A program made the translations under genes and the position numbers. This document shows, in pieces, positions 8,295-37,614 of a stretch of DNA of 64,000 nt. Source of the stretch: Longimicrobiales bacterium (lineage in GTDB: Bacteria; Gemmatimonadota; Gemmatimonadetes; Longimicrobiales; Gaopeijiaceae); the NCBI GenBank assembly GCA_965116905.1, contig OZ220732.1, positions 1,376,001-1,440,000 on the forward strand, read 5' to 3'. Under the pieces are notes generated by a model. The model saw only the letters and a list, made by a program, of their open reading frames with translations. It did no database searches and was not told the DNA's origin. The stretch's first letter is position 1, and the number at the start of each line of letters is the position of its first letter.

Positions 8295-8333
8295 TGTCAA
8301 CTAAAGGTTACGTATTGTAATGTTTACTTTACA
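8295..8333. repeat. Dispersed 39-bp double-palindrome element, copy 1
   Basis: TGTCAA-CTAAAG-GTTACG-TAT-TGTAAT-GTTTAC-TTTACA; AT-rich island between divergent genes. Confidence 0.7.
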
Positions 8334-9912
8334 TTTGTGGTCGCTCTTCAAGCCCCATCATACGCTCGCGGCGCTCAGCCTGACCTTCGCGTTCGGCGGC
8401 AACCCGCTGGGGGGCCAGAGCTTCGAGCTCGAAGAGGCGACGATCGCCGAGGTCCACGCCGCCTTCCTCTCGGGCGACCTCACCTGTGTGGACCTCGTGC
8501 AGTCGTACCTGGACCGGATCGCCGCGTACGACAACCAGGGCCCGCGGCTCAACACGATCGCGACCCTGAACCCGCGCGCCCTCGACGAAGCGGCGCGGCT
8601 GGACGAGGCGCTCGCGGCCGGCGGGCTTACTGGGCCGCTGCACTGTATTCCGGTGCTGCTGAAGGACCAGGTCGAGACCAGCGACATGCCCACGACCTAC
8701 GGCTCCGCGCTCTTCGCGGAGTTTGTGCCGGAGCGGGACGCGACAATAGTCAAACGGGTCAGGGAGGCGGGCGCGATCATCCACGCCAAGACCAACATGG
8801 GCGAGTTCGCGTCGCGCTACGTGGGGTCGGGATTCGGCGTGATCCGCAACGCGTACGACCCGCGCCGCAACCCCAGCGGCTCGTCGGGCGGCACCAGCGT
8901 GGGCATCGCGGCCAACCTCGGCATGGTCGGGATCGGCGAGGACACGGGCGGCTCGATCCGCGGTCCGGCGGCGGTGGCGTCGTTGGTCGGTCTGCGGCCC
9001 ACCCTGGAGCTTGTGAGCCGCTTCGGCCTGATGCCCGCCAACCCCACGACCGACACGCAGGGCCCGATCACGCGCACGGTCATGGACGCGGCCATTCTGC
9101 TCGGCGTCATCGCGGGGTACGATCCGAACGATCCCGTGACCGCCCGTGCGGTGGGGCGTGTGCCGGAGGCGTATGAGAGCGGACTTGGCAGCGAGGGGTT
9201 GCAGGGCGCGCGCATCGGAGTCATCCGCGACGCCATGGACGAGTCGGTGGATCCGGGCTCTGAGGGGTTCCGGCAGGTGCGCTCCCGCGTCGACGCGGCG
9301 GTGGCCGATCTGCGGCGGCTCGGGGCCCAGGTCGTGGACCCGGTCACGATCGAGGGAATCGAGACGGTGAACCGGGTGTTCGGGAGCAACTCGTACGAGA
9401 CCGAGGAGGCGACCGACAACTACCTGTCCGAACATGCAAGCGCCCCGTACAAGACGCTGCGCTCGATTCTGCTCAGCGGGCGGGTGACGCCGTGGCGCGC
9501 GGCGGGTCTCGCGAACTCGCTGGGCAAGTCGACCGGCGACCCTGGGTACCTGGAGTACCTGCTCGGCCGCGACCGGATTCGGCAGAACGTGCTCGTGGCC
9601 ATGGCCGAACAAGACCTCGACGCTCTCGTCTACGCCACCTTCGACCACCAAGTGACGCTGATCGCCGAGGACGCCGAGACGAATCCCGCGCCAGCCGATC
9701 AGTACGGCCTGGGCGACAACCGGCTGTTGAGCCCGGTGACGGGGTTCCCGGCGCTGACGGTGCCTGCGGGGTTCACGCCGGACGGGCTACCCGTGGGGAT
9801 CGAGTTCCTGGGGCGCCCGTTCACCGAGGCGATGCTGCTGCGGTTCGGCTATGCGTTCGAACAGGGGACGGGGTATCGGCGACCGCCGGAGAGTGCGCCA
9901 CCGCTGGGTTAG
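8320..9912 (+). CDS. Amidase signature family protein (exported)
   Basis: GPLHCIPVLLKD (catalytic Lys), PSGSSGGT, GEDTGGSIRGPA (Ser-cisSer-Lys triad); true start uncertain because ATG 8320 lies inside the 39-bp element. Confidence 0.9.
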   Translation: MFTLHLWSLFKPHHTLAALSLTFAFGGNPLGGQSFELEEATIAEVHAAFLSGDLTCVDLVQSYLDRIAAYDNQGPRLNTIATLNPRALDEAARLDEALAAGGLTGPLHCIPVLLKDQVETSDMPTTYGSALFAEFVPERDATIVKRVREAGAIIHAKTNMGEFASRYVGSGFGVIRNAYDPRRNPSGSSGGTSVGIAANLGMVGIGEDTGGSIRGPAAVASLVGLRPTLELVSRFGLMPANPTTDTQGPITRTVMDAAILLGVIAGYDPNDPVTARAVGRVPEAYESGLGSEGLQGARIGVIRDAMDESVDPGSEGFRQVRSRVDAAVADLRRLGAQVVDPVTIEGIETVNRVFGSNSYETEEATDNYLSEHASAPYKTLRSILLSGRVTPWRAAGLANSLGKSTGDPGYLEYLLGRDRIRQNVLVAMAEQDLDALVYATFDHQVTLIAEDAETNPAPADQYGLGDNRLLSPVTGFPALTVPAGFTPDGLPVGIEFLGRPFTEAMLLRFGYAFEQGTGYRRPPESAPPLG

Positions 9913-11372
9913 CCGCCGCGCCGCCGCATTGCGAAGACACCGTTCAGGTAGTGCGTCGCGCGACCGTTGCCATCGTCGCCCCAGAAGGCGACGTCCCAGC
10001 CGCGGTTGCCGCCCATCGCCGGATTGCGGGGCAGAAACCGGTCGCCGCCGAGCGGGATGAGTTCGGACTCCAACGTGCTGCCGACCTCCGACCGCGCCAT
10101 CAGCCGGTCACTATCCACGGAGAACGAGAACCGGCTACCAAACGCCTCGAACTGCCCCACGTAGCGCTCGAGTTCGACCTCCTGGGGCGTCACCGTGTCC
10201 GGCTTCGGTGTCTGGGGCTTGTCGATGCCGAAGACCTCCGGAAACAGGGTGTCGAACACCTTGTCGGCCAGCGGGTAGCCCTGGCTCGGCACGTTGGCGA
10301 TCGTTGCGGCCGCGACGCCTCTGCTCGGACACCAGAGCAGCAGTGAGGACCCCCCGCTGTTGGTGCCGCTGTGCCCGTAGATCACCTCGCCGCCCCAGCG
10401 CTTCCAGTACGGCCCCGTGCACCACCTCTGGGCGATGATCCGGGTCGGCATGTCGATCTCGGGCGTGTGCATCGTCTCGACGGCTCCCTCCGACAGCACC
10501 TGCCGCCCGTCGGCCGAGCGTCCATCCCGCAGGAACATCCGGGCGAATCGCACGAGGTCGCCGGCGCTGCAGCACAGGGTTGCCCCGGCCGGGGCGATGC
10601 TGCGCGGCAGCCCCCAGAACGGCACCCGCTCGCCTTCGGGGTTGGCGGGGGTCGGCGAGTAGCCGAGCGCTACCGGGTGAAAGAGCAGGTCCTCCGGGAA
10701 GGTCGCCGAGTGCTCGAGCCCCAGCGGCTGGAGGATGCGTTCGGCGAGCAGGGTCTCCCAGTTCCTGCCCATCACCCGCTGGGCCACAAACCCGGCGACG
10801 GCGGTACCCGCGTTCGAGTAGCCGTAGGCCGTGCCCGGCTCGAAGATGACGGGCAGCTCGGCAAGTGAAGCGACGTACCGGCCCAGCGCGTCATCGCCGC
10901 GGCCGTGATCCGTGTACGGCCCGTTGTCGAGCCCCGACGACATCGAGAGCAGTTGGCGCAGGGTCATGTCCACGGGCGGGACATCGCTCGTGAGCGACGC
11001 GCCGTCGAGGTAGCTTGCGACGGGTCCGTCCAGGTCGAGCGTGCCCTCGTCGACCAGGGCCATGACCACGGCGGCGTTGAAGACCTTGGTCGTCGAGCCG
11101 ATCTGGAACAGCGTGTCCGGCGTGACGGCCACGTTGCGTTCACGAATCGCCAGACCGGTCGCGAACTCCTGGACCGACTCGCCGTCGAACACCGCGAGCT
11201 GGGCACCGACGATGCCGAGGCTCTCGGCCGATTCGTCGAGGAGCTGCTGGAGGTCGCGCCGGTCAAAACGCACCTGCGGCGGAGCGGAGATTGCCGCGAG
11301 GTGTCGCGCTGACGCGACGATCGGCAGGGCAGCCGCGGCCGCACCGGCCTTGAGTAGTGACCGTCGGTTCAT
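9909..11372 (-). CDS. Tat-exported serine hydrolase (beta-lactamase class C/AmpC-like family)
   Basis: MNRRSLLK twin-arginine signal, FQIGSTTK (SxxK), YGYSN (YxN), GHSG. Confidence 0.9.
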   Translation of the reverse strand: MNRRSLLKAGAAAAALPIVASARHLAAISAPPQVRFDRRDLQQLLDESAESLGIVGAQLAVFDGESVQEFATGLAIRERNVAVTPDTLFQIGSTTKVFNAAVVMALVDEGTLDLDGPVASYLDGASLTSDVPPVDMTLRQLLSMSSGLDNGPYTDHGRGDDALGRYVASLAELPVIFEPGTAYGYSNAGTAVAGFVAQRVMGRNWETLLAERILQPLGLEHSATFPEDLLFHPVALGYSPTPANPEGERVPFWGLPRSIAPAGATLCCSAGDLVRFARMFLRDGRSADGRQVLSEGAVETMHTPEIDMPTRIIAQRWCTGPYWKRWGGEVIYGHSGTNSGGSSLLLWCPSRGVAAATIANVPSQGYPLADKVFDTLFPEVFGIDKPQTPKPDTVTPQEVELERYVGQFEAFGSRFSFSVDSDRLMARSEVGSTLESELIPLGGDRFLPRNPAMGGNRGWDVAFWGDDGNGRATHYLNGVFAMRRRGG

Positions 11373-11617
11373 CTGGCACTCTCCATGTTCGTGGTCCGTG
11401 ACCGCATCCGGCCGGAGAAGGGCTTGCTCGGTACCCTTCCCGTCTCCTCACAGAATTCGAGGTAGTCATCGACGGCGCGTCGCATCGACTCCTTCAACTC
11501 ATCGACAGAGGATCCTTCGAAGTTGATTCCGTCTCGCGTGTCCACGACATGACCCGAGAAAAACTCGTATTCCTCATCGTACTCGAAGACGCCCGTGTAG
11601 CCGCGGTACTCGATCAT
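11369..11617 (-). pseudogene. hicB: HicB antitoxin lacking its C-terminal RHH DNA-binding domain
   Basis: MIEYRGYTG...FEGSSVDELKESMRRAVDDYLEFC...PSKPFSG; similarity stops after PFSG, compared with the full-length paralog at 25223..25609. Confidence 0.7.
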
Positions 11618-11817
11618 GGTCTCACCCCTGCACGTTCCAGGAACACACGCAACCGCTTGACGAGACCCTTTCCGCACTCGGGACGGGGATGGGGTCTATG
11701 CACGGTCTCGACCTCTCCGTTCAAGACGATGATCACGGATGATCCCCGTCTCTCGTGAACCTCGGCACCCAGAGCGCGGAACATATCAAGGATGGTCTGA
11801 CACGGCGATCTTGCCAT
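11614..11817 (-). pseudogene. hicA: HicA toxin, probably N-terminally truncated
   Basis: FRALGAEVHERRGSSVIIVLNGEVETVHRPHPRPECGKGLVKRLRVFLERAGVRP* with ATGA overlap to hicB; the usual N-terminal helix is not recognisable. Confidence 0.65.
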
Positions 11818-11839
11818 GGCGACACCTGAACCGTAGGCT
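11811..11839 (+). promoter_or_regulatory. Putative sigma70 promoter of beta-propeller paralog 1
   Basis: TTGCCA-N17-TAGGCT; a related box precedes paralog 2. Confidence 0.5.
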
Positions 11840-11894
11840 GGCCTCACGGGCACGGGAATGTTCCGTTGCGCCCACTATGGCACGGGAGGCGCTC

Positions 11895-13118
11895 ATGAAG
11901 CCGCATCCTCTCCTGGCCTTGATGTCCCTGGCCGCGTTTGCCTGCGACCAGGGCCAGGAATCTGCGCCCTTCCCCACCACCCAGGTCCGCGACAGCGCGG
12001 GAATCCGGATCGTCGAGAACCCGCGTCCGTCGGACAGGTCGCGGCTCCCCTGGCGGATCGGTCCGGAGCCCGCCGTGTCCATCGGTGCCGTGGAGGGCGA
12101 CGAGCCCTACATGCTCGTCGGGGCCATCGACGCCACCAGGCTAAGCGACGGTCGCATCGTCGTTGTGAATGGCGGAACGAGCGAGCTGCGCGTGTTCGAC
12201 GCAGTGGGGGATCACGTCGCAACCTGGGGCGGCCGCGGAGAGGGTCCGGGCGAATTCGGAGGCCTCTACGCGGTCGAGCGATGGCCGGGAAACTCGATCA
12301 TCGCCTGGTACACAACGCGCCTGGGGATTTCGGCCTTCGACGCGCAGGGGAACTACGGCCGCACGTGGGAACTCGTGCAGGAGGGGTCCATCCCGCTAAT
12401 GCTTGGCTTCCGGCCCGAGTACGCGATGCACGACGGCTCGATTCTCGCGGTTCACATGCCCGAGTCTTCGGATACCGTCGTCGTTCAGCTCAGGGACGGT
12501 GAGGGAAGGATACGGGGTTCGCTAGGGACGCACAGGGTCGCCGAACCGTATATCCATTCCCCGGGAACCGACCAATCACTGCTGCTCGAGAAGACCTTCG
12601 GGCACGAACCGGTCTGGACACCGTGGGGAGGCCTGGTCGTTATCGCCCACACGGGTCGGTACGAACTGAGGGCCTTCGCGGCGGACGGTTCTCTGGCGCG
12701 GATCGTCAGGCGCGACCATGTGCCCCGTTCTCCGACCCCGGCCCAGATCGAGGCTTACATCGAGGGACAACTCGCCTGGACCACCGACGTGGCCGAGAGC
12801 CAGAGAGCGCGGTGGCGTGAGGGATACGAGTCGGCGCCGGTAGCGGAGCACCTTCCGGCGTTCGAGTCGGTCATGTCCGACGCGGCGGGCCACCTTTGGG
12901 TTGCGGAATACGAGTTCTCAACGGCGGCTCGGGGCACATACGAGGAGCGACCGCCCCGACTCTGGACGGTTTTCGATCCGGAAGGCAGGGTGTTGGGCAA
13001 TGTCGAGACGCCGGAGGACCTGTGGATCCACGAAATCGGCGAAGACTACATCCTTGGCGTGGTTCTCGACGAACTCAATGTGGAGTATGTACAGGTGTGG
13101 ACGCTCGAGCGGCTATGA
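11895..13118 (+). CDS. Lipoprotein 6-bladed beta-propeller (NHL/TolB-like) protein, paralog 1
   Basis: GGGAGG RBS, lipobox LAAFAC, RDSAGIRIVEN, WGGRGEGPGEF, WTVFDPEGRVLG, EIGEDYILG...DELNVEYVQVW. Confidence 0.85.
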   Translation: MKPHPLLALMSLAAFACDQGQESAPFPTTQVRDSAGIRIVENPRPSDRSRLPWRIGPEPAVSIGAVEGDEPYMLVGAIDATRLSDGRIVVVNGGTSELRVFDAVGDHVATWGGRGEGPGEFGGLYAVERWPGNSIIAWYTTRLGISAFDAQGNYGRTWELVQEGSIPLMLGFRPEYAMHDGSILAVHMPESSDTVVVQLRDGEGRIRGSLGTHRVAEPYIHSPGTDQSLLLEKTFGHEPVWTPWGGLVVIAHTGRYELRAFAADGSLARIVRRDHVPRSPTPAQIEAYIEGQLAWTTDVAESQRARWREGYESAPVAEHLPAFESVMSDAAGHLWVAEYEFSTAARGTYEERPPRLWTVFDPEGRVLGNVETPEDLWIHEIGEDYILGVVLDELNVEYVQVWTLERL

Positions 13119-13124
13119 TCCGCG

Positions 13125-13152
13125 TTGCGGGAACGATGCTTCAGGATAGGCT
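13125..13152 (+). promoter_or_regulatory. Putative sigma70 promoter of beta-propeller paralog 2
   Basis: TTGCGG-N16-TAGGCT followed by a leader homologous to that of paralog 1. Confidence 0.4.
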
Positions 13153-13207
13153 GGCCCTTTGGGCGCGCGAATGTTCAGATGGGCCTAATTTCCACCGGGA
13201 GGCTTTT

Positions 13208-14410
13208 GTGAGGCTGAATCCTCTCCTTGGCCTGATGTCTGTGGCCGCGCTTGCCTGTGAGCAGGGCCGGCAATCACCGCTCTCTCTCCCCACTCAAACA
13301 CGCGACAGCGCGGGAATCCGGATCGTCGAGAACGCGCAGCCGCCGGAGGGGTCGCGGCTCTCGTGGCGGATCGGCCCGGAGCCCGCCGTCTCCATCGGAG
13401 CCGTTGAAGGCGACGAGCCCTACATGCTCGACGGGGCCATCGACGCCACCAGGCTGAGCGACGGACGCATCGTCGTCGCCAACGTGGGCACACAGGAGCT
13501 GCGGGTCTTCGACCCAGCGGGGAACCATCTCGCGACCTGGGGTGGCCAGGGGGAGGGGCCGGGGGAATTCACGGGTCTCTGGCAGGTGGAGCCGTGGCCG
13601 GGCGACTCGATCGTGGCCTGGAGTGCACCACGCTTCGGGATCTCGGTCTTCGATGGGCGGGGGACCTACGCTCGCACGTTCAGGCTGGTGCACGACGAAG
13701 CCACATCACCGATGCAGCGCTTCTGGCCACAGTCGACGACGCGAGACGGAGCCCTTCTCGCGGTGCACGGGCCCGAAGACGCGGACACAGTCGTCGTTCA
13801 ACTCAGAGACGGCCAAGGCGGAGTCCGGAGCTCGTTCGGCACCCATCCCGGCAGTGAGCCATACATCCACCGCGAGGGGGACCGGTCGATGCTGTTCTGG
13901 AAGATCTTCGGGCGGCAGTCGGTGTGGAGTCCGTGGAGCGACCTGACCGTCGTCGCCCACACCGGCCGCTACGAACTCACGGCGTTCGGTTCCGATGGGT
14001 CCCTGAGCCGGATCGTCAGGCGAGATCATATCCCGCGCGCGCCCTCGGAGACTGACGTCGAAGCCTTTGTCGAGTGGCAGATCGGGCGCAGCAGGCGCAG
14101 CTCCGAGAGCGAAATGGCCGAGTCGCGACGGCGGTATCGGAGCGTGCCGGTCGCCGAGCACTTTCCGGCTTTCGAGTCGATCTTGAGCGATGCCCGCAAC
14201 CACCTCTGGGTTGAGGAATACGAGCTGCCGGGAGAAGAGGAGCCGGGAACGCTCTGGACCGTTTTCGATTCGGAAGGCCGCGCGCTGGGGTTCATGGAGA
14301 CGCCGGAGGGTCTGTGGATCCACGAGATCGGAGAGGACTATATCCTCGGCCGTGCCCTCGACGAACTCAATGTGGAGTACGTGCAGGTGTGGACGCTGGA
14401 GCGTTCCTAG
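13208..14410 (+). CDS. Lipoprotein 6-bladed beta-propeller protein, paralog 2
   Basis: GGGAGG RBS then GTG 13208; lipobox AALAC; same motifs as paralog 1 with long near-identical DNA stretches at both ends. Confidence 0.85.
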   Translation: MRLNPLLGLMSVAALACEQGRQSPLSLPTQTRDSAGIRIVENAQPPEGSRLSWRIGPEPAVSIGAVEGDEPYMLDGAIDATRLSDGRIVVANVGTQELRVFDPAGNHLATWGGQGEGPGEFTGLWQVEPWPGDSIVAWSAPRFGISVFDGRGTYARTFRLVHDEATSPMQRFWPQSTTRDGALLAVHGPEDADTVVVQLRDGQGGVRSSFGTHPGSEPYIHREGDRSMLFWKIFGRQSVWSPWSDLTVVAHTGRYELTAFGSDGSLSRIVRRDHIPRAPSETDVEAFVEWQIGRSRRSSESEMAESRRRYRSVPVAEHFPAFESILSDARNHLWVEEYELPGEEEPGTLWTVFDSEGRALGFMETPEGLWIHEIGEDYILGRALDELNVEYVQVWTLERS

Positions 14411-14431
14411 GGCCGTCGGGGTAGGAGACGT

Positions 14432-15640
14432 ATGAGGATTCGCATTGTCGGTGTGATGCTCGCGCTCAGCGCGTTGGCCTGCCAGCAGGACCCCGGCACT
14501 CGTACCGCGCTGGCCAGTGCGGCCCGCGACAGCGCCGGCGTCCGGATCGTCGAGAACGCGCGGCCCCCGGACGGTTCGCGCCTGGGATGGACAATCGGAC
14601 CTGAACCTGCGGTTTCGATCGGTGTTTTCGAAGGCGAAGAGCCGTACATGCTGCACTGGGCCGACGATGCGACGCGGCTCCGGGACGGTCGGATTGTCGT
14701 GGCGAACAATGGGAGCAACGAACTGAGGGTGTTCGACGCAGACGGAACTCACGTGGCTACATGGGGCAGAGATGGGGAGGGGCCGTCGGACTTTGCTGCT
14801 CTCACGGAGGTAGATGCCTGGCCGGGCGACTCCATCATAGCCTGGTACACGGGTGCATTCGGAATGGCCGTTTACGACTCGGACGGGACTTTCGGGCGCA
14901 CGTTTGTGCTGCAGAGCCAGGAGAACGTCAATGGGCTCAGACCCCGACTTGACGCCGCGCGCGCGGATGGCACGTTGCTGTCGACAAGGGACGTGGAGGA
15001 CCTGGATTCAGCCATCGTAGAGGTATGGACGAGCCAAGGGGCGCTGTCCGCATCCATGGGAGCGCATCCCGCCGAGGAGATACTGATCACGGGCGAGGGA
15101 CGCGGACGAACGCTGAGCAGACTCGCGTACAGCCGCCAACTTGTCACAGGCCTGTGGGGCGACCTGGTTGTCATCAGTCACAACAGCCGCTACGAGATCA
15201 TGGCGTACCGCGTGGACGGCGTTCTCGACCGGGTCGTCAGGCGGGACCATTTGCTTCGATCCCCAACCGAGGCCGACCGCGAGCCCTTTGTCGAAGAACA
15301 GCTGTCGCTGCTTGAGGGCGCCGACATTCCCGAGTTCGTGGAGCGGGCAGCACGCCAGGAGTTCGAAACAACGCCCTTGGCCGACTTCTTCCCTGCCTTC
15401 GTGTCGGTCCTGGGCGACGCCGCCGGCCACCTCTGGTTGGAGGAGTACGAGTTCCCGCGAGAGAATCGCCCCGGCACGCTATGGACCGTGTTCGATCCCG
15501 AGGGAGACGCTCTCGGGTTTGTGGAGACGGCGGAGGGATTGGAGATCTACGAGATTGGTGAGGACTACATTCTGGGCCGGGTCAAGAACGAACTCGGCGT
15601 GGAGTCGATTCAGCTCTGGCCGCTGGACCGGTCCGGCTGA
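14432..15640 (+). CDS. Lipoprotein 6-bladed beta-propeller protein, paralog 3
   Basis: AGGAG RBS, lipobox SALAC, RDSAGVRIVEN, GEGPSDF, EIGEDYILG. Confidence 0.85.
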   Translation: MRIRIVGVMLALSALACQQDPGTRTALASAARDSAGVRIVENARPPDGSRLGWTIGPEPAVSIGVFEGEEPYMLHWADDATRLRDGRIVVANNGSNELRVFDADGTHVATWGRDGEGPSDFAALTEVDAWPGDSIIAWYTGAFGMAVYDSDGTFGRTFVLQSQENVNGLRPRLDAARADGTLLSTRDVEDLDSAIVEVWTSQGALSASMGAHPAEEILITGEGRGRTLSRLAYSRQLVTGLWGDLVVISHNSRYEIMAYRVDGVLDRVVRRDHLLRSPTEADREPFVEEQLSLLEGADIPEFVERAARQEFETTPLADFFPAFVSVLGDAAGHLWLEEYEFPRENRPGTLWTVFDPEGDALGFVETAEGLEIYEIGEDYILGRVKNELGVESIQLWPLDRSG

Positions 15641-15681
15641 CGCCGGGAACAGCCCTCCAGGAGAGAAGGGACACAGGTTCG

Positions 15682-17034
15682 ATGCGTGGCCATTGCTCCC
15701 CGAGCACCCTGGCAACTCGTGGACTGCCAGTACTCGCAGGGTTGCTGCTGGTGTTCGCCGGATGCCAGGAGGGCCAGGCTCCAACGGCCGGTGCTTTCGT
15801 GGTCCGCGACAGCGCTGGCATCGAGATCGTCGAGAGTATGGCACCGGCCTGGGACGGAGATGGTTGGACCGTGTCGGGGACGCCGAGCCTGGTCATCGGT
15901 CAGATGGGGGGAGACGAGCGCTACCTGTTCGGGGAAGTGGCCGGCGCCGTCATGCTCCGCGATGGGCGAATCGCGGTGCTCGACGGGCAGAGCGCACTGA
16001 TCCGCGTGTACTCGCCCGAGGGCGAGCACATCGAGGACTGGGGAGGACAAGGGGAAGGCCCGGGAGAGTTCACCTCCGCCCAAACCATTTCGTCGTATCG
16101 GGGCGACTCGATCCTCGTGAGCGAGTTTGTCGCACGCCGGCTTGTGATCTTCGACGACCGGGGACGGCTCGGGAGAAGCATCGTCCCGGAGATGAGGATG
16201 TCATTTGCAACCGAACAGCGCAGGCGCATGGCAGAAGGGGACCGCTCGACGGTTCCCGGGTGGAGCTGCTGCAGACTCTGGGGCTCGCTCCGGACCGGCG
16301 CCTTCCTCCTCTCCTACCCCGAGATGATCCCCAACGAGGGGAGCGGGACAAAGAGGGCGTCGGTCACGGCGGCCATCATGCCGGATGCCGGCGGGGCGGC
16401 CGAATCCGTCGGCGTCTTCGGGGGGATGACCTATGAGCTCGGCCTGCAGGGATCGCGGTCCCGATTGCAGCTCCAACCGTGGTTCAACATGGTCCCGGGA
16501 CCCGATGGGTACTATGCCACGCAGGGAGACTCCTATTCGATTGATGCATACGACCTGGGCGGCAACCTAAGGCGAATCATCCGGCTCGCCCGCGAAACCC
16601 GACCCGTCACCGATGAGATCAAGGCGGCCTACGAAGCCGGACTTCGAGATCGGCTCATGGCGCCCGGCGCGTTTATCGACGCCGACTCTCCCGAGGAAAT
16701 GCTGGACATATTGCTCGCCGGTCCCTATCCCCCACATCTCCCCACGTTCTTTCAGCTCCTCGTGGACCCGGATGGCAACATCTGGGCCGGTCAGCGTCGG
16801 TACGGTGCGGGTGATTCCGGCGCGGGCGGCACCGACGACGGCACCGTGAACGACGACTCCCAGCCGTCCGAAATGAACGAGTTCATCGTCTTCGGAGCCG
16901 ACGGGCGGTACCTCGGCATGGTCGAGCTGACAGCCGATTTTCAGGTGCTTCTTATCGGCACGGACTTCATTCTCGGGGCGCTGAGGGATGACCTCGGCGT
17001 AGCCTGCGTCCACGTTTACCGGATTGAGAAGTAG
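15682..17034 (+). CDS. Lipoprotein 6-bladed beta-propeller protein, paralog 4 (more divergent)
   Basis: Lipobox VFAGC, RDSAGIEIVES, WGGQGEGPGEF, IGTDFILGALRDDLGV. Confidence 0.8.
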   Translation: MRGHCSPSTLATRGLPVLAGLLLVFAGCQEGQAPTAGAFVVRDSAGIEIVESMAPAWDGDGWTVSGTPSLVIGQMGGDERYLFGEVAGAVMLRDGRIAVLDGQSALIRVYSPEGEHIEDWGGQGEGPGEFTSAQTISSYRGDSILVSEFVARRLVIFDDRGRLGRSIVPEMRMSFATEQRRRMAEGDRSTVPGWSCCRLWGSLRTGAFLLSYPEMIPNEGSGTKRASVTAAIMPDAGGAAESVGVFGGMTYELGLQGSRSRLQLQPWFNMVPGPDGYYATQGDSYSIDAYDLGGNLRRIIRLARETRPVTDEIKAAYEAGLRDRLMAPGAFIDADSPEEMLDILLAGPYPPHLPTFFQLLVDPDGNIWAGQRRYGAGDSGAGGTDDGTVNDDSQPSEMNEFIVFGADGRYLGMVELTADFQVLLIGTDFILGALRDDLGVACVHVYRIEK

Positions 17035-17054
17035 GGACTACTGCGTCAGCGCGT

Positions 17055-17093
17055 TGTCAACTACACTTTACATGATGTGACGTAAAGTTTACA
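17055..17093. repeat. Dispersed 39-bp double-palindrome element, copy 2
   Basis: TGTCAA-CTACAC-TTTACA-TGA-TGTGAC-GTAAAG-TTTACA; lies between convergent genes. Confidence 0.75.
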
Positions 17094-17108
17094 CACAGGC
17101 CGCAAAAT

Positions 17109-17145
17109 CCTTGCAAATCCAGCACGCCATACCGGATTTGCAAGG
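17109..17145. promoter_or_regulatory. Perfect 12-bp inverted repeat with 13-bp spacer (operator-like, or bidirectional terminator hairpin)
   Basis: CCTTGCAAATCC-N13-GGATTTGCAAGG. Confidence 0.5.
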
Positions 17146-17177
17146 TTCGCTCGTCTTGACCACATCCCGCCCGCCCC

Positions 17178-18944
17178 CTAGACCTCCCCCCGCCTTGCCG
17201 CCCACACCGCGTAGTGACTCGCTCTCGCCGCGAACGCCATGTAGGTCAGCGACGGGTTCTGGCAGCCGGACGACGCCATCGACGCGCCGTCGATCACGAA
17301 CAGGTTGGGCACGTCCCACGCCTGGTTGTGGGCGTTGAGCACGGAAGTGGCCGGGTCGCGGCCCATGCGCGCCGTGCCCATCTCGTGGATGGTCAGCCCG
17401 GGCGGGGTCATCTCGGTGTCGATCGTGATGTCGCGGCCGCCGCCGGCCTCGAGCATTTCGGCGGCCTGCAGGGCGGCGTCGCGCATCATAGCGCGCTCGT
17501 TGTCGCTCCAGGTGCAGCTGATGCGCAGCGTGGGGATTCCCCACTTGTCGACCTGCTCGGGGTCGAGGGCCACGTGGTTCTCCTCGCGCGGGAGGCACTC
17601 GCCGAATCCCTCGATTCCGAACGACCACGGCCCCGGGCGGAGCAGGTCGCTCTTGAAATCCCCTCCAAAACCCGGCATCGACATGCCCCGCCCCCATCCT
17701 TCCCTTCTCGCCGAGCCCTGGTACCCGTACCCGCGCACGAAATCGGGCGAAGGCTCGGTGACATTGCGGAAACGGGCGATGTAGATGCCGTTGGGGCGCC
17801 GGCCACGAGTAGTGCGGTCCTCCCAGCCGGGGAAGGTCGCGCGCGCGCCGACGTCCATCGTGTGGTCCATGAGGTATTTGCCGAGCACGCCGCTTGAGTT
17901 GGCGAGACCGTCTGGGAAGTCGGCCGACATCGAGTTGAGCAGAATGCGCGTCGATTCCAGCGCGGAGGCGCCGAGGAAGACGGTGCGCGCGCGGTACTCG
18001 GACTCTTCGTGGGTCTCGGCGTCGATCACGCGGACCCCGCTGACCCGCCCGGCCCTCGGATCCCAGACGACCTCGGCGACGACGCTGTTGGGGCGCAGGG
18101 TCATGCGGCCGGTGGCCTCGGCGGCGGGGAGGGTGGCGTTGAGCGAGCTGAAGTAGCTGCGGGTACGGCATCCCCGGTGGCAGGGGCCGCAGTAGTGGCA
18201 GGCGCGCCGGCCCTTGTGATCGCGCGTGAGGACGGCGGTGCGGCCGATCGTCATGCGCCGGGTGCCGCCGAACGCGCTGTCGATCACGCCCGCCACATGC
18301 TCCTCGACGCAGGACATCTGCATCGGCGGCAGGAAGACCCCGTCCGGAACCTGCGGCAGCCCCTCCGCGCGCCCGCTGATGCCGACGAACGCTTCGACGT
18401 GGTCGTACCAGGGCGCCAGGTCGGCGTAGCGGATGGGCCAGTCGACCCCGTATCCCTCACGCGCGTTGGCCTCGAAGTCCAGGTCCGACAGCCGGTAGCA
18501 CTGCCGCGCCCACATGATCGACCGGCCGCCCACCTGCCGTCCGCGGATCCACAGAAAGGGCTTGTCCGGATCGGTCGTGTACGGGTTCTCGATGTCGTTG
18601 ACGAAGAACTTGCGGCCCACTTCGTCGCAGGCGTAGCACTGGCCCTGGACCGGCTGCTCGGCCGCCACCGCCTTGCGGTCGTTCCAGCCGCGGTACGGCA
18701 TCTGGTACGTGGGGAGGTGCTCGGCGTAGTCGCGTTCGGGCACGATCATCGGCCCCGCCTCGAGGACGAGCACGTTGGCGCCCAGTTCGGTCAGCTCCTT
18801 GGCGGCCCACCCGCCCGACATCCCCGAGCCGACGATGATCGCGTCGTACTCCTGGCGGCGCGGACGGATGTGGAACGGCCGCACGCGAAAGAGGTCCCGG
18901 CGCGCGACGGTCAGCGGCCGGCCAGCCGGTTGCCCGTCGGTCAT
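17178..18944 (-). CDS. GMC family FAD oxidoreductase (glycoside 3-dehydrogenase-like flavoprotein subunit)
   Basis: YDAIIVGSGMSGGWAAKELTE, RGRQVGGRSIMWAR, CHYCGPCHRGC Fe-S motif, IHEMGTARMG, QNPSLTYMA. Confidence 0.9.
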   Translation of the reverse strand: MTDGQPAGRPLTVARRDLFRVRPFHIRPRRQEYDAIIVGSGMSGGWAAKELTELGANVLVLEAGPMIVPERDYAEHLPTYQMPYRGWNDRKAVAAEQPVQGQCYACDEVGRKFFVNDIENPYTTDPDKPFLWIRGRQVGGRSIMWARQCYRLSDLDFEANAREGYGVDWPIRYADLAPWYDHVEAFVGISGRAEGLPQVPDGVFLPPMQMSCVEEHVAGVIDSAFGGTRRMTIGRTAVLTRDHKGRRACHYCGPCHRGCRTRSYFSSLNATLPAAEATGRMTLRPNSVVAEVVWDPRAGRVSGVRVIDAETHEESEYRARTVFLGASALESTRILLNSMSADFPDGLANSSGVLGKYLMDHTMDVGARATFPGWEDRTTRGRRPNGIYIARFRNVTEPSPDFVRGYGYQGSARREGWGRGMSMPGFGGDFKSDLLRPGPWSFGIEGFGECLPREENHVALDPEQVDKWGIPTLRISCTWSDNERAMMRDAALQAAEMLEAGGGRDITIDTEMTPPGLTIHEMGTARMGRDPATSVLNAHNQAWDVPNLFVIDGASMASSGCQNPSLTYMAFAARASHYAVWAARRGEV

Positions 18945-19597: not shown

Positions 19598-19645
19598 GCG
19601 TTACCGTTTCCGCCGCTTTGACGCGGTCTTGCTGGAGGACGACGG

Positions 19646-20554
<909 letters not shown>

Positions 20555-20651
20555 CCGATAATCACCAGCCCATCACAAATCATATTCAGAGCATGTATGG
20601 ACCATCATCTATCATGATCTGACATCCCACCACACCCCAGCACGGAAACCC

Positions 20652-25609: not shown

Positions 25610-25632
25610 GGCTCCACTCCCGCGGCTCTCAG
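25606..25632 (-). pseudogene. hicA: C-terminal remnant (8 codons + stop) of hicA
   Basis: Minus strand reads CTG AGA GCC GCG GGA GTG GAG CCA TGA = LRAAGVEP*, with ATGA overlap on hicB, like FLERAGVRP* of the other hicA. Confidence 0.6.
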
Positions 25633-26453: not shown

Positions 26454-26597
26454 GCGCCGAATATCGACGGACTCGCCGCAGTGGGCAACGACCGGCATCG
26501 TGCTGGAAATCACCCCGGCGCCGGGCTAGCATTGTGGAAGCAGCCCGACCCACACGCCCGGTCACTTGCCACAGGCCCGGAGGAGACCACGCCAACG

Positions 26598-28529
26598 ATG
26601 TCAGTTGAACGTCTGATGAGAGCCGCGATCGCATTTCTGCTGACCCTCGGCGCATGGGCCTGCGACTCACCCGGTGCGCCTGCGGGAGGCTCGCCCTGGG
26701 AGCGCACCCGCGAGGCCGCGAACGGTGGCGACCCGGCCCACCTGGCCTGGCTCGAGGACAACTACGACAAGAGCGAGCACATGGTCTCCATGCGGGACGG
26801 CGCACAGCTGTACACGATCGTCTACACGCCCCGCTTCACGACCGAGCCGGTGCCGGTCATGCTGTTCCGCACACCGTACTCGATCGCACCGTACGAGCCG
26901 GATCAGTACCGCAACCCGCTCGGGCCGTCCGCCGAGTTCGACCGGGCGGGCTACGTGTTCGTTTTCCAGGACGTGCGCGGCAAGTTCCGGTCCGAGGGCG
27001 ACTTCGAGGTCATCCGCCCGCTGGCGCCCAAGCCCAAAGGGCCGACGACGGTCGACGAGAGTACCGACAACCACGACGCGATCGACTGGGCGCTCGCGAA
27101 CGTGGAGGGCCACAACGGCAGGGTGGGGCAGTGGGGGATTTCCTACCCGGGCTGGCAGACCGTCATGGGGATGGTGGATGCGCATCCGGCGCTCGCCGCG
27201 TCGTCTCCTCAAGCTTCCCCCTCCGACATGTTCATAGGGGACGACTGGCACCACAACGGCGCCTTCAGAGTCATGTACGCCTTCTCCTGGCTCGCCAGAA
27301 ACGCACGCAGGCGAGATGCGCCCACCGACGCGCGGGAGGGTCCCTTCGACTACGGCACCGACTCCGGCTACGACTTCTTTCTGGCCGCGGGGTCGGCGGC
27401 GAACATCAACGACCTGTACTTCCATGGCGATGTTCCGGCCTGGAACGATTTCATCGAGCACGACACGTACGACGAATACTGGCAGCGGCAGAACGCGCTA
27501 CCGCACCTGCGCGGCATCCGGCACCCGATCCTGAACGTCGCGGGTTGGTTCGACACCGAGGATTTCTACGGGCCCATGTCGATCTACAGGACGATCGAGG
27601 CGGAGAATCCGGGCACCGAGAACACGCTCGTGGCGGGTCCGTGGCTGCATGGCGGGTGGTCGCGCATGCTCGGCGACAACCTGGGGTGCATCGAGTTTGT
27701 CGACGAGACTTCGGTGACCTTCCAGCGGGAGGTTCAGTTCCCGTTCTTCGAGCATCATCTGCGGGGGGTGGAGGGTTGGGCGGCGCCTGAAGCGTTCGTC
27801 TTCGAGACCGGGTCGAATGTGTGGCGCACGCACGAGACCTGGCCGCCGGCGGGCGTCGAGCCGGTGTCACTTTACCTGGCCGACGATCGTGGCCTTTCCT
27901 TCGATCCGCCGTCCGGGCCGGGTGGCTCGGACAGCTATGTCAGCGACCCGAACAATCCCGTTCCATTCTCGGCAGAGGAGCGGACGACGCTCGGGCATCT
28001 CTGGAAGGTCGAGGATCAGCGCTTCGCGTCGGCGCGGCGGGACGTGCTGGTGTACGAGTCGGAGCCGCTCGCGGAGGACCTGACCATCGCGGGACCGATC
28101 CTGGCGGACATCTTCGTATCGACGACCGGCACCGATTCCGACTGGATCGTGAAGGTGATCGACGTCTATCCGGACGATGCCCCGGACTCGCCCTTCTGCG
28201 ACGTGCCGATGGGTGGCTACCAGATGCACCTGGCGGGCGAGATCATGCGCGGCCGCTTCCGCAACAGCCTGGAGCACCCGGAGGCGATGGTGTCGGGCGA
28301 AGTCACGCCGATCCACATCGACCTGAGGGACCGCTACCACACCTTCAAGGCCGGCCACCGGATCATGGTGCACGTGCAGAGTTCGTGGTTCCCCGCGTAC
28401 GACCGCAATCCGCAGCAGTTCGTCAACACGTACACCGCCAGTCCCGAGGACTATGTGGTGGCGTCGCAGACGGTGCACCGGGGCCCGAACTACCCATCGC
28501 GGGTGACGTTCGGGGTGGTGAGGGACTGA
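26598..28529 (+). CDS. CocE/NonD family hydrolase (alpha-amino acid ester hydrolase-like), lipoprotein
   Basis: Lipobox GAWAC, MRDGAQLYT, RTPY, QDVRGKFRSEG, GISYPG nucleophile, GPWLHG. Confidence 0.9.
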   Translation: MSVERLMRAAIAFLLTLGAWACDSPGAPAGGSPWERTREAANGGDPAHLAWLEDNYDKSEHMVSMRDGAQLYTIVYTPRFTTEPVPVMLFRTPYSIAPYEPDQYRNPLGPSAEFDRAGYVFVFQDVRGKFRSEGDFEVIRPLAPKPKGPTTVDESTDNHDAIDWALANVEGHNGRVGQWGISYPGWQTVMGMVDAHPALAASSPQASPSDMFIGDDWHHNGAFRVMYAFSWLARNARRRDAPTDAREGPFDYGTDSGYDFFLAAGSAANINDLYFHGDVPAWNDFIEHDTYDEYWQRQNALPHLRGIRHPILNVAGWFDTEDFYGPMSIYRTIEAENPGTENTLVAGPWLHGGWSRMLGDNLGCIEFVDETSVTFQREVQFPFFEHHLRGVEGWAAPEAFVFETGSNVWRTHETWPPAGVEPVSLYLADDRGLSFDPPSGPGGSDSYVSDPNNPVPFSAEERTTLGHLWKVEDQRFASARRDVLVYESEPLAEDLTIAGPILADIFVSTTGTDSDWIVKVIDVYPDDAPDSPFCDVPMGGYQMHLAGEIMRGRFRNSLEHPEAMVSGEVTPIHIDLRDRYHTFKAGHRIMVHVQSSWFPAYDRNPQQFVNTYTASPEDYVVASQTVHRGPNYPSRVTFGVVRD

Positions 28530-28532
28530 AAC

Positions 28533-28571
28533 TGTAAACTCCGGTTGACATGATGTGAACTGGAGTTGACA
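28533..28571. repeat. Dispersed 39-bp double-palindrome element, copy 3 (most symmetric)
   Basis: TGTAAA-CTCCGG-TTGACA-TGA-TGTGAA-CTGGAG-TTGACA; begins 4 bp after the CocE stop. Confidence 0.8.
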
Positions 28572-28609
28572 TCCGCAGGTTGCCGGTTGGCGGTCCTCAC
28601 TGCATATTG

Positions 28610-28627
28610 CTCCTAAACATTTAGGAG
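28610..28627. promoter_or_regulatory. Perfect palindrome overlapping the RBS of beta-propeller paralog 5
   Basis: CTCCTAAA-CA-TTTAGGAG, 9 bp before ATG 28637. Confidence 0.55.
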
Positions 28628-28636
28628 ACGCCAGCT

Positions 28637-29899
28637 ATGCTCGACCTCCAACTATGCTCAAGGGGGCCCGCAAATCCAGCGCCCGCCCGTTTCGCGCCGC
28701 TGTTCGCGGCCGTCCTCCATGTGGCCGTCTTCCACGCGGCCGCGGCCTGCCAGGACGGTGCGCTGCAGAACCTCCCCGCTTCGCAAGTCCGGGACAGCAC
28801 CGGTATCCGAATTGTCGAGAACGCCCGCCCCGCCGACGATTCGCGATTGCCCTGGCGAATCGGCCGAGAGCCCTCGGTGTCGATCGGCGAAGTGACCGGT
28901 GAGGAAGCGTACATGCTGCACCGGGTGGACGACGCCGTGATGCTGCCGGACGGCCGTATCGTCGTCGCGAACACCGGGACAAGCGAGATCCGCGTTTTCG
29001 ATGCTTCCGGGATGCACCAGGCGACCTGGGGCCGGGAGGGAGGGGGGCCCGGGGAATTCACGGCTCTCGCCGGCGTGGCCCCCTGGCCGGGCGACTCCAT
29101 AGTCGCGTGGGACACGCGGACCGATGCCATCGCCGTCTTCGACTCGGTAGGAGCGTTGGGGCGCTCGTTTGTTCTCGAGGCGGAGGGTCGCCCCGCCGAG
29201 CCCCGGATGCCCATGAACGACGGCACGATTCTGGGGCGGATCGTGGATGCCGGGAGCGGCCCGGGCTACAGGCGCGAGCAGATCACGCACGAAGTGCGCG
29301 ATTCCGACGGACGCATGCTCGTCTCGCTGGGGGAGCACGCCGGGCGCGAGTCCTTCATCAACATGGACGGCCGCATGGCGGTGTTCGGCCTGCTGCCGTT
29401 CAGCCGCTCGCTGCACGAGGCGCTTTGGGGCGAGATGGTCATCCTCGCTCCGGACGATCACTACGAGATCCGTGCCTACGACCGGACGACCGGACGACTC
29501 GCGCGCATCGTTCGCCGCGACTACGCCAATCGTGCACCGACGCGCGAAGAGGTCGACCGGGCGATCGACGACGCCCTGGAACGGACCAACCTGAGCGGCG
29601 ATCGCCTCGAATGGACGCGCGAGGGCTACAAGGACATGCCGCTGGTGGAGGGCTTCCCGGCGTTTCGGTCACTCCTGGTCGATGTGCTGGACCATCTCTG
29701 GGTGCGGGAAGCGACCCTTCCGGGCATGGACAGGCCCGCACCCTTGTGGACGGTCTTCAACGCAGAAGGGCGGGTCCTGGGGTTCATTGAGACGCCCGAG
29801 GGGCTGACGGTGCTCGAGATCGGCGCCGACTACATCCTGGGGCAGGCCGCCGATGACCTGGGGGTCGAGTCGGTGCAGGTGTGGCCGCTGGAGCGGTAG
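28637..29899 (+). CDS. Lipoprotein 6-bladed beta-propeller protein, paralog 5
   Basis: AAAAC lipobox-like, RDSTGIRIVEN, WGREGGGPGEF, EIGADYILG...DDLGVESVQVW. Confidence 0.85.
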   Translation: MLDLQLCSRGPANPAPARFAPLFAAVLHVAVFHAAAACQDGALQNLPASQVRDSTGIRIVENARPADDSRLPWRIGREPSVSIGEVTGEEAYMLHRVDDAVMLPDGRIVVANTGTSEIRVFDASGMHQATWGREGGGPGEFTALAGVAPWPGDSIVAWDTRTDAIAVFDSVGALGRSFVLEAEGRPAEPRMPMNDGTILGRIVDAGSGPGYRREQITHEVRDSDGRMLVSLGEHAGRESFINMDGRMAVFGLLPFSRSLHEALWGEMVILAPDDHYEIRAYDRTTGRLARIVRRDYANRAPTREEVDRAIDDALERTNLSGDRLEWTREGYKDMPLVEGFPAFRSLLVDVLDHLWVREATLPGMDRPAPLWTVFNAEGRVLGFIETPEGLTVLEIGADYILGQAADDLGVESVQVWPLER

Positions 29900-29905
29900 C
29901 GGGTG

Positions 29906-35915: not shown

Positions 35916-35922
35916 TCTCGGC

Positions 35923-36273
35923 CTATCGCCGCACCATGCCGCCCAGCGGTCGCCCGCCCATGAGGTGCAGGTGGAGGTGGTAGACTTCCTGCCCCCCGTG
36001 GTCCCGGCAGTTGATCATGACGCGGTAGCCGTCGTCCGCGATCCCCTCGTTCTCGGCGATACCGGCGGCCACCCGGAGCATGCGGCCCAGCACCGCCTCG
36101 TCGTCCGCGGACACGTCCGCAAGTGTGGGGATCGCCCGGTTCGGCACGATCAGGACGTGTGTGGGCGTAAGCGGACGGATGTCGCGAAAGGCGGTGACCA
36201 GATCGTCCCGGTAGACGATGTCCGCCGGGATCTCGCCCCGCACGATCTTCGAGAATATGGTGTCTTCGGCCAT
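35923..36273 (-). CDS. hinT: Histidine triad (HIT) nucleotide-binding protein
   Basis: [35 protein letters not shown]. Confidence 0.92.
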
Positions 36274-36333
36274 GTCCGTCTATCGTAGCATTCTGGGGAA
36301 TCGGAGCAAGAGGAGGGTGGTTCGGGGGCTATT

Positions 36334-37614
36334 ATGTCAACTGTGCTTGACTTATTGCGCGCTCCTGGACTTCGCTCGGCGTTGCGCCGACGCCGCTGGG
36401 TGCCGCTCGTCTCTCTCGTTGCCGCGCTCGCGATTTCTGCTTGCGAACCCGACAGCGCCATGCAAATGGACGCGGCCGAACCCTGGCAAACGGAGCCTGA
36501 GTACGAGATAGGCGTCCTGGTCGAGGGGAACGCGACGTTCGAGCGGGTGACCGGACTGCGTGTCGGCGGCGGCGGGACGCGCCTCTACGTGCTGGATCCG
36601 GGCCGGGAGCGGCTCACCGTGTGGTCTCCGGAGGGTGTCGAGCTGCTCGAAATGGCGTGGGCAGGTGAGGAGGAAGGCGAGCTCGGTTCGCCCGACCGTA
36701 TCGAGTTGCGCGACGGGGGATTTCAACTGCGGGACGGCAACTCATTCGTGGTTTTCGCCGAGGACGGACAGCATCGGGAAACCGTGTCCCTGCCCCCGGC
36801 CGTGGGCTTCAACCGCTTCCGGCTCAGACCGGAGCTGATGTTGCCGGACGGGGCGTTCGTGGTGTCGCTCAGGATTCCCGATGGCGTACGGGCGGGCTGG
36901 TTTGAGGAAGATCCGATCGTGGAGGCTCCCGTCCTTCGGCTTGAGCAGGTCGAGGGCCAATGGGAGTTCGACTCGCTGGCCGTGCTCGACATCCGGAACC
37001 GGGATCTGGATCTTCGGCCGAGTGAGAGCGGTTTCGGATGGTCTCTGCACACGGCACAGCCCTACGGCGACGCGGATGAGATCGACTTCCTGCCGGCTTC
37101 AGGCACGATGGTGGTGACGCGAGACAGCCGGTCCGACCCCGGACTGGTTTACCTGCACCAGATCGCTGCCGGCGGCGACACGGTCTGGTCGGGAAGCCTG
37201 CGGTTCGAGGCGGCTCCGCTGTTGCCCGATGACGCCGCGGAGGCATTGGCCGCGGAAGCGCGGGCCGTCGCCGGGACGCTCGGGTCGCTTTCCCTCGATG
37301 AGGCTGCGGCCCTGGTGGAGCAGGTCCTGTACGTACCCGACCACTATCCGGCCGTCATGGACACCGAAGTCATGTCCAACGGGGAACTGTGGATCAGGAA
37401 CCACGAAGAGCCGGGCGACACGCTGGACGTCTGGTACGCCGTGCGGATTGGCGGGGGAAGCACTGCGCCACGACGGACGCCGCGGCGCATCCTGGTACCG
37501 TGGTCCTTCTACCCCTTCGATACGACGGACACACACGTGTGGGGCATTCAGCTCGATCCCGAGACCGGGGGGCAATACGTGGTCGGCAGGAGACTGGTTC
37601 GCGGCAGCGGCTGA
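36334..37614 (+). CDS. Divergent lipoprotein beta-propeller protein (paralog 6); start uncertain
   Basis: Lipobox AISAC, PEYEIG, LYVLD, degenerate AGEEEGELG in place of GEGPGEF, C-terminal HVWGIQLD. Confidence 0.6.
   Translation: MSTVLDLLRAPGLRSALRRRRWVPLVSLVAALAISACEPDSAMQMDAAEPWQTEPEYEIGVLVEGNATFERVTGLRVGGGGTRLYVLDPGRERLTVWSPEGVELLEMAWAGEEEGELGSPDRIELRDGGFQLRDGNSFVVFAEDGQHRETVSLPPAVGFNRFRLRPELMLPDGAFVVSLRIPDGVRAGWFEEDPIVEAPVLRLEQVEGQWEFDSLAVLDIRNRDLDLRPSESGFGWSLHTAQPYGDADEIDFLPASGTMVVTRDSRSDPGLVYLHQIAAGGDTVWSGSLRFEAAPLLPDDAAEALAAEARAVAGTLGSLSLDEAAALVEQVLYVPDHYPAVMDTEVMSNGELWIRNHEEPGDTLDVWYAVRIGGGSTAPRRTPRRILVPWSFYPFDTTDTHVWGIQLDPETGGQYVVGRRLVRGSG
36335..36355. repeat. Half copy of the 39-bp element (copy 4)
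   Basis: TGTCAA-CTGTGC-TTGACT-TAT; the second unit is degenerate. Confidence 0.45.

Follow-up and report, generated by a model that had tools for sequence, protein, structure and literature searches.

A 39-bp tandem palindrome dispersed through a Longimicrobiales genus and its predicted reader, an XRE regulator with a periplasmic-binding-protein-like domain

The 64,000-nucleotide stretch of contig OZ220732.1 analysed here (the window) belongs to a closed Longimicrobiales genome of 4.21 Mb and 68% GC (G000) and contains three copies and one half copy of a 39-bp element, all of which exist exactly as an earlier note, made from the letters of the window alone, had written them. The element recurs throughout this genome and its genus, and we propose that it is the dispersed operator of a regulator, here called XRE-PBP, in which an XRE-family helix-turn-helix (HTH) domain is fused to a periplasmic-binding-protein-like (PBP-like) domain. 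The divergent, tandem and convergent gene contexts that the note had assigned to the copies are likewise correct, and a degenerate pattern detected no full copies within the window other than those at 8295, 17055 and 28533. The copies and the genes beside them are given below; gene calls come from a hexamer model built for the analysis, and some gene starts are uncertain.

8295..8333, unstranded: full double site (copy 1), between divergent genes, with the amidase start codon (8320) inside it
17055..17093, unstranded: full double site (copy 2), between convergent genes
28533..28571, unstranded: full double site (copy 3), in tandem context, 3 bp past the stop codon of a CocE/S15-family gene
36335..36352, unstranded: single 18-bp half site, in a divergent gap
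4419..8129, minus strand: gene for a large PD40/BNR-repeat protein, divergent neighbour of copy 1 (gene call, Pfam PD40)
8320..9912, plus strand: amidase gene, its first codons within copy 1 (Pfam Amidase, E 1e-89)
15799..17034, plus strand: final member of a tandem array of 6-bladed beta-propeller genes (Pfam DUF5128, below cut-off)
17178..18944, minus strand: GMC oxidoreductase gene, convergent neighbour of copy 2 (Pfam GMC_oxred_N/C)
26616..28529, plus strand: CocE/peptidase S15 gene, ending 3 bp before copy 3 (Pfam Peptidase_S15, PepX_C)
28721..29899, plus strand: beta-propeller gene downstream of copy 3 (Pfam DUF5128, below cut-off)

The full element consists of two 18-bp palindromes in tandem, separated by a 3-bp centre (18+3+18), with a period of 21 bp. 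Each half site reads TGT(A/C)AA-N6-TT(T/G)ACA with A/T flanks, and the logo of 124 unique sites gives the consensus TGT(A/C)A(A/T)(C/G)(T/C)NN(A/G)(C/G)(A/T)T(T/G)ACA, repeated about a centre that is mostly TAA or TTA. The half sites are conserved, as previously noted, but the N6 spacers are not free, since they follow a consensus of their own, (C/G)(T/C)NN(A/G)(C/G). The genome-wide scan that the earlier note had suggested, performed with an iterated position weight matrix, yielded 37 double sites in G000 at the exact 21-bp period, with 0-2 double sites at each of the other spacings from 18 to 31 bp; a pair with 23-bp spacing lies at 914,958-914,998. With the degenerate pattern, 34 copies were found at up to two mismatches and 37 at up to three, against expectations of 0.0003 and 0.007, respectively. 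Copies within G000 differ from one another at a median of 13 positions, the sole identical pair lying inside a larger element described below, and orthologous standalone copies diverge by 0.089 in their hexamers and by 0.172 in their spacers. The 124 sites show no excess complementarity within halves (observed equals expected), so that a hairpin is not needed, and a hairpin of the repetitive extragenic palindromic type is ruled out by the lack of compensatory pairing between the palindrome arms. Many copies have a sigma-70-like promoter built in (inner TTKACA, 17 bp, TACANT): in 18 of the 37 G000 copies, including the one facing the XRE-PBP gene, a TAnnnT -10 box lies 17 bp from the inner hexamer. 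Two double sites and one single site cluster between two large Ig-like genes (3,463,080-3,463,345), paired single half sites occur at 3,428,166-3,428,370, and in the relative G002 two like sites in direct orientation flank gene fragments of the Rpn/YhgA-like family, named by eye (L025:67-1036). The ends of IS21-like elements in G000 score as single half sites and are unrelated to the element; a viral collection gave ten scattered single matches with no pattern.

Comparison with similar sequences elsewhere points to a protein that probably binds the dispersed sites. When GTDB genomes were scanned for the exact pattern, at least 80 loci were found, with 56 from Gemmatimonadota and 24 others among the matches listed. 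At 19 of the 24 non-Gemmatimonadota matches listed, a small XRE/HTH_3 gene encoding a VSRQ or VTRQ recognition helix lies within the same 3-kb stretch, in most cases following a gene for a small membrane protein (two of 14 tested pass DUF2178). Again among the matches listed, the exact 18+3+18 form is found ahead of such operons in Spirochaetes, Thermotoga, Bacteroidota, Parcubacteria and one archaeon; in two Saccharibacteria genomes (L278, L301) an exact double site stands upstream of a dnaK-like gene, with no XRE operon there. A profile seeded with four of the 19 XRE-bearing loci has only one strong match in G000, the HTH of XRE-PBP (E 9e-18; next best 1.5e-7), and XRE-PBP is the best match to the small XRE proteins in 46 of 47 site-positive genomes. 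Its gene (977,773-978,885; 370 amino acids; HTH_3 plus PBP_like) opens a modABC operon and is preceded, 56 bp upstream, by a site: this is the copy directly before an HTH gene for which the earlier note had recommended a search. The nearest solved relative of the HTH is CylR2 (E 5.6e-9), and a model of the protein (pLDDT 89) gives the C-terminal domain a type II periplasmic-binding/LysR-effector fold. The family is widespread, with 404 cluster representatives at E<=1e-30.

Motif_24, WATGTAAAGTWWACTTTACATW, appears in Table S1 of PMC12565409 as lying upstream of XRE genes (881 proteins, 2.2 sites per protein). In the available portion of that study, Motif_24 is positive in electrophoretic mobility shift assays with a mutation control (protein tested, G4P54_09295), Motif_25 and Motif_27 likewise lie upstream of XRE genes, with 2.2-2.3 sites per protein for Motif_24/25, and XRE proteins are described as working as dimers on palindromes. 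The half site of our logo matches the Motif_24/27 consensus of that table, W-A flank included. By testable criteria the element is a CylR2-type XRE operator, at which binding is predicted from sequence. The earlier suggestion of tandem operators for one dimeric HTH protein, phased two helical turns apart, is thus supported, the candidate protein being encoded elsewhere in G000. PF12727 also occurs fused to MoeA (available text of PMC10102598). XRE-PBP may sense molybdate or tungstate, given its modABC neighbourhood and modelled anion-binding fold.

Sites are carried by 47 of 53 congeners, in numbers ranging from 9 to 262 (at most one mismatch; median 46). The other six (G049, G008, G051, G060, G011 and G016) have none, and in five of these the count is still zero at three mismatches. 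Across 12 genomes from other genera of the order, one site match was found in total. The XRE-PBP gene was found in all 47 site-positive congeners, always with a site upstream of it (up to four mismatches), and in one of the six site-free congeners, whereas it was not found in the other five. In a valS tree the site-free genomes fall in three places, although a single clade is only marginally rejected (approximately unbiased test, p-AU 0.04). Sister genera have an XRE-PBP orthologue with two half sites before it at eight of nine intact loci, and just 0-2 sites per genome in the five genomes scanned, which suggests that the local operator is ancestral and the dispersal derived. The densest genomes are also the smallest (G053, G040 and G035, with 37-90 sites per Mb). 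In these three, about 100 residues of XRE-PBP, comprising the whole second PBP lobe, are cleanly deleted with the HTH intact (L409:916-1698 in G053, L421 and L408), a natural deletion common to the three small genomes in a transcription factor that was retained.

Several sites lie inside core genes. The site in smc (gene at 2,877,890-2,881,354) encodes 13 coiled-coil residues, CQSSLTSCKAELT in G000; of the 30 site-positive genomes examined, 27 have it at the identical codon, with varying amino acids; at equal length, it is absent from four of four site-free genomes and also from G008 and three outgroup genomes. The tail of valS has a site in 43 of 44 positive, none of six site-free and none of five outgroup genomes, and some site-free genomes retain traces of it, the residues CRVQLTKLQDKLT and CALQLTKWEAKLS being recoded to GC-rich codons. 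At the valS site the codons are TGT in 42/43, AAA in 42/43, CAA in 34/34, ACA in 70/85 and TTT in 25/25 cases, compared with 3/81, 3/163, 7/134, 6/280 and 24/460, respectively, in the body of the gene, counts that pool kin and are not independent. Another site overlies the Walker A lysine and the following helix of an AAA_27 ATPase (27 of 38 positive genomes, in two clades; none of the 6 site-free), set apart from the version without a site by synonymous changes plus one or two residues, and further copies occur in acyl-CoA ligase linkers. Because these copies are in frame, length-neutral and due to codon changes, the in-gene sites arose in place and cannot be insertions. They are held by selection on the DNA, as evident from the rare codons, and are lost where the protein is lost; they track their genes and not a fixed distance from dif. 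The idea that the copies are leftovers of lost autoregulated modules is contradicted by this purifying selection, by the in-place origin in core genes and by the disappearance of the sites in lineages that lack the protein. Of the four in-gene sites of G000, two belong to genes for SMC-superfamily ATPases (smc and the AAA_27 gene), the latter (447,189-450,949) following an SbcD/Mre11-like metallophosphoesterase gene. The site-free G051 (97% complete) has no DNA match to the smc of G000, making a loss of SMC possible there; other site-free genomes have smc.

Eight of the 37 G000 sites are situated within an element of about 250 bp whose long inverted arms pair and fold back (for example 1,652,920-1,653,173, L484:221-474, plus seven others). 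This carrier is a miniature inverted-repeat transposable element (MITE), as it has terminal inverted repeats, lacks an open reading frame and shows polymorphic insertion, with filled and empty sites at short TAG/TAA targets. A short form of about 170 bp is without the middle (2,601,378; 4,142,632; 3,886,058). Divergence among the eight copies is 6-7% in the arms, 12% in the hexamers and 27-30% in the spacers and inner flanks; the central stretch of about 85 bp varies roughly four times as much as the arms. The MITE is present in 49 of 53 congeners, and its arms were detected at 5 of 15 sampled loci in G056, 4 of 15 in G013 and 17 of 30 in G053, where copies share a lineage consensus with identical repeats; variability by zone in the G053 MITEs was confounded by indels and is left out of account. 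G062 and G047, with little MITE left, keep 62 and 54 sites. Within G000, no pair of MITE arms enclosing a gene and no matching transposase was seen. An apparent replichore polarity of the MITE (7 of 8 G000 copies) was dropped, as both orientations were found by inspection on both sides of dif among the first 100 G053 sites listed. The remaining 29 of the 37 G000 sites have no detectable MITE arm, and none of these 29 standalone copies shows a target duplication of 2-5 bp, which, together with the median of 13 differences between copies, rules out the 39-mer itself as a transposon or MITE.

In G000, tandem gaps hold 18 sites, divergent gaps 10 and convergent gaps 5, the other 4 being intragenic, and the intergenic split matches that of background gaps (966 tandem, 476 divergent, 228 convergent). 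The neighbours include glnA, moxR-DUF58, trpB-trpA, atpH-atpA, peptidases and defence-island genes (assigned by eye; moxR/DUF58 confirmed). The adjacency to beta-propeller genes that had been noted in the window holds there but not genome-wide: this family has 75 genes in G000, and 3 of 37 sites adjoin a member compared with 96 of 1701 intergenic gaps (Fisher p=0.46), and the link is rejected. Relative to oriC (near 880 kb) and dif (2,929,977), sites occupy both replichores with a mild skew (25:12, p=0.03), and one stretch of 700 kb is without any double site. A sub-type of the site with TTTCCA/TGGAAA (742,966; 771,341; 781,822) occurs in a variable island at 730,000-792,000, which contains many toxin-antitoxin pairs, XRE/ImmA regulators and defence-like genes; the sub-type clusters likewise in G056. 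Elsewhere in G000, 17 tRNA genes lie on one strand within 2 kb (1,296,478-1,298,432).

The history of the window copies was followed in relatives. Copy 1 is retained with colinear flanks in all four relatives having the locus, and in the same four the amidase ATG at 8320, which lies inside the copy (8295..8333) as the earlier note had observed, is conserved. G061 still has copy 2, whereas G056 and G041 have lost it by deletion, the two genes that flank it remaining next to each other. At the orthologous place of copy 3, most relatives have two units, G001 one, G061 three and G013 none, the last through a clean 42-bp loss with a 3-bp repeat at its edges. The half site at 36335 has a counterpart half site in G001, and none was seen in G014 and G061. 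The beta-propeller gene that ends 20 bp before copy 2 is a neighbour outside the system, and the one downstream of copy 3 is absent from the equivalent place in G005. The array to which the former belongs comprises four 6-bladed beta-propeller genes in tandem (11895-17034); through exchange between paralogues, its length differs among relatives, with breakpoints inside the array, and also in run X1 (joint 14433 to 15626). A small HicB-like gene lies at 11369-11617 (Pfam HicB at cut-off; a HicA partner was not noticed), and a sponge metatranscriptome run contains window DNA.

Based on these results, we propose the following hypothetical mechanism, in which (i) two XRE-PBP dimers would occupy four successive major grooves on one face of the DNA; (ii) the protein bound at the 39-bp site would damp transcription wherever the site sits; (iii) it would occlude the built-in sigma-70-like promoter and thereby repress initiation; and (iv) inside genes, inside operons and between convergent genes, the doubly bound site would act as a roadblock to elongation. 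Elongation roadblocks are known for other repressors. The operator, local in sister genera, would have been multiplied in this genus by MITE transposition and selected point changes. We consider a dispersed XRE-PBP operator that acts by repression or roadblock the best overall explanation of the data, while giving it about an even chance of being correct; should binding occur, an effect on transcription would be slightly favoured.

Several observations weigh against this proposal. There is no promoter-side preference (convergent gaps hold 5 of 33 intergenic sites, against 228 of 1670 in the background), and tabulating neighbours and orientation, as the earlier note had advised, revealed no preferred family or orientation. 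The neighbours are unrelated and form no coherent regulon; with 4 of 37 sites intragenic in addition, a conventional promoter regulon was rejected. The built-in promoter faces the downstream gene in just four of six informative tandem gaps. The co-occurrence of protein and sites (Fisher 2e-6) is overstated, since relatives are not independent, and the disappearance of the XRE-PBP gene may in part follow that of the mod operon. In G049 a divergent XRE-PBP is encoded, with operator and sites both missing; G003, its protein intact, has 14 sites, but those in smc and valS are gone; and in G017 the XRE-PBP gene (L481) is frameshifted in the HTH, possibly through an assembly indel, yet the smc and valS sites are intact. 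Judging by these exceptions, possession of the protein is not enough to predict dispersal, and a second factor may be at work. In addition, close relatives freely gain and lose individual copies, and the smc site, present in G053, is half lost in G046. The loss of lobe 2 in the three densest genomes means that ligand-controlled regulation is not the whole function there. Separately, several of the 14 sites of G003 are of a foreign-looking type, and this assembly has 7% contamination.

A possible, though clearly less probable, alternative keeps the same binder and regards the sites as chromosome-organising anchors, which XRE-PBP, as a sequence-specific nucleoid protein comparable to MatP at matS or XerD at XDS, would bridge via its C-terminal domain or at which it would halt or unload SMC. 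The position-blind spread over the chromosome, including convergent gaps and gene interiors, would fit this, as would the destroyed ligand cleft of a protein nevertheless kept in the three densest genomes, its type II periplasmic-binding/LysR-effector fold, and the in-gene sites in SMC-superfamily ATPase genes. On the other hand, the sites are neither enriched at nor excluded from origin or terminus (they come within 11-51 kb of dif in G053 and G000), a 700-kb stretch of G000 has no double site, the number of copies varies between 9 and 262, six congeners live without sites, and smc, which was not found in G051, does occur in other genomes that lack sites. SBS, bound by SlmA, and NBS, bound by Noc, are dispersed chromosome-organising sites that are confined to or excluded from the terminus. 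A terminus- or origin-patterned organiser such as these, matS or XDS was rejected, because our sites lie on both replichores and near dif. With the same reserve, we can envisage that a transporter repressor was co-opted as a chromosome organiser in the ancestor of this sponge-associated genus, gained once and lost at least twice. The site might, on this speculative account, have been broadcast by the MITE and written into smc, valS and the SMC-like ATPase gene, with the densest lineage discarding ligand sensing. It is less likely still that most dispersed copies are mere MITE passengers that titrate the protein, only the modABC operator and a few in-gene sites being of consequence; here the MITE would have picked up the operator, and insertions would be tolerated because the repressor silences the inner promoter. 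The arms found at 8 of 37 G000 sites and at the sampled loci of G056, G013 and G053, the polymorphic insertions at TAG/TAA, the identical repeats and lineage consensus of G053, and the free gain and loss of single copies are in line with such passengers. They would not account for the 29 G000 sites without an arm, for standalone hexamers that diverge half as fast as the spacers, for in-gene copies produced by codon changes and not by insertion, or for the many sites kept by G062 and G047 with little MITE.

We consider it improbable that another reader, for example XerD or another factor, recognises the sites and XRE-PBP is merely one of its targets. The XerD arm of the G000 dif (TTATGTAAAGT, 2,929,977) is identical to the half-site arm at about 9 of 11 bases, and the exceptions G003, G049 and G017 would also be explained. 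However, two strong XerC/XerD-type recombinase matches occur in site-free G051 and G060 just as in site-positive genomes, site-free G008 has the same dif arm, and G035, G040 and G053 changed the arm but not the site. The geometry also differs from 11+6+11, and the profile search found no second VSRQ-type XRE in G000 or in site-positive genomes. A Xer site of the dif/pdif type was itself rejected, as the facing arms overlap by 3 bp and the true dif is single. At that dif (2,929,977-2,930,004; L027) an extra palindrome overlaps the XerC arm, and the three smallest of the site-rich genomes have a changed XerD arm. Least credible of all is the alternative raised by the earlier note, which takes the element to be a recombination site or a minimal transposon or insertion-sequence circle junction (TGT...ACA ends, ACA-NNN-TGT centre) marking cassette junctions. 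The clean 42-bp loss in G013, the clustering of a site sub-type in the variable island, and the 21 of 53 relatives' sites that lie near a synteny break relative to G000, with homology ending at the outer edge of the site in three, are what such a site might leave behind. The synteny test that the note had called for nevertheless turned out otherwise: none of the 21 breakpoints falls inside a site, 29 of the 53 sites are fully colinear, and the window copies were kept or lost with colinear flanks. The 29 standalone copies lack a target duplication, copies in smc, valS and the Walker A helix are in frame and length-neutral, no joint was found at 8295 or 17055 among 15 of 35 joints listed from three contig-level runs, and single exact copies elsewhere precede XRE operons. 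The recombination-site or transposon-end reading is therefore largely refuted; integron-like cassettes were rejected too, the sites lying on either side of genes and inside them.

Related letters and layouts are known from other regulators: TyrR boxes (TGTAAA-N6-TTTACA) have the same half-site letters, with double boxes 23 bp apart and linked to promoters, and tandem ARG boxes of ArgR have the same 18+3+18 layout with a different consensus. The closest counterparts are the autoregulatory operators of small XRE/HTH_3 proteins (CylR2-like, VSRQ), Motif_24/25/27, which in the available parts of PMC12565409 have the same 18-bp palindrome, usually in two copies. These operators form one locus per genome, in front of the regulator's own operon, and serve small XRE proteins, whereas the element described here is scattered in 9-262 copies, a number of them within core genes, and its predicted reader has the HTH joined to a PBP-like domain. 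XRE-PBP regulators (HTH_3 plus PF12727) beside modABC elsewhere have the same domain order, the same position upstream of modA-modB-modC and an operator of their own; in sister genera that operator is local (0-2 sites), unlike in this genus. The motif and the protein family are already known; the novelty lies in one local operator having been multiplied across a genus, having arisen codon by codon in core genes and having been lost with the protein. Such a dispersal was not found described in the literature searched, in which terms for Gemmatimonadota or sponge symbionts were not combined and most subscription papers lay outside coverage.

One genus displays all stages of this process, from the local operator of its sister genera through MITE-borne spread, in-place sites and loss of the sensor lobe to decay after loss of the protein, providing a natural test case for the origin and MITE-driven rewiring of bacterial regulons or nucleoid-organising systems. 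Because the protein is small and the site short, binding, roadblock and bridging could be assayed in vitro and in E. coli even with an uncultured host. Among mobile elements, the neisserial Correia element with its internal site for integration host factor, as far as the available text of PMC10969869 describes it, is likewise a MITE with a host-protein site and promoter-like sequence that can alter neighbouring transcription, and it too has long and short forms, here of 250 and about 170 bp. Unlike that element, the site described here is one for a specific predicted repressor, persists without MITE arms and also arises in place in genes. The matS/MatP and XDS/XerD systems, in the accessible sections of PMC11894783, likewise consist of tens of conserved protein-binding palindromes in coding and non-coding DNA; matS and XDS are terminus-confined or terminus-excluded, whereas the element of this genus has no such pattern, is longer at 39 bp and derives from a transcription-factor operator. 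If the co-option outlined above were true, a nucleoid-structuring system would have been caught arising from a transcription factor.

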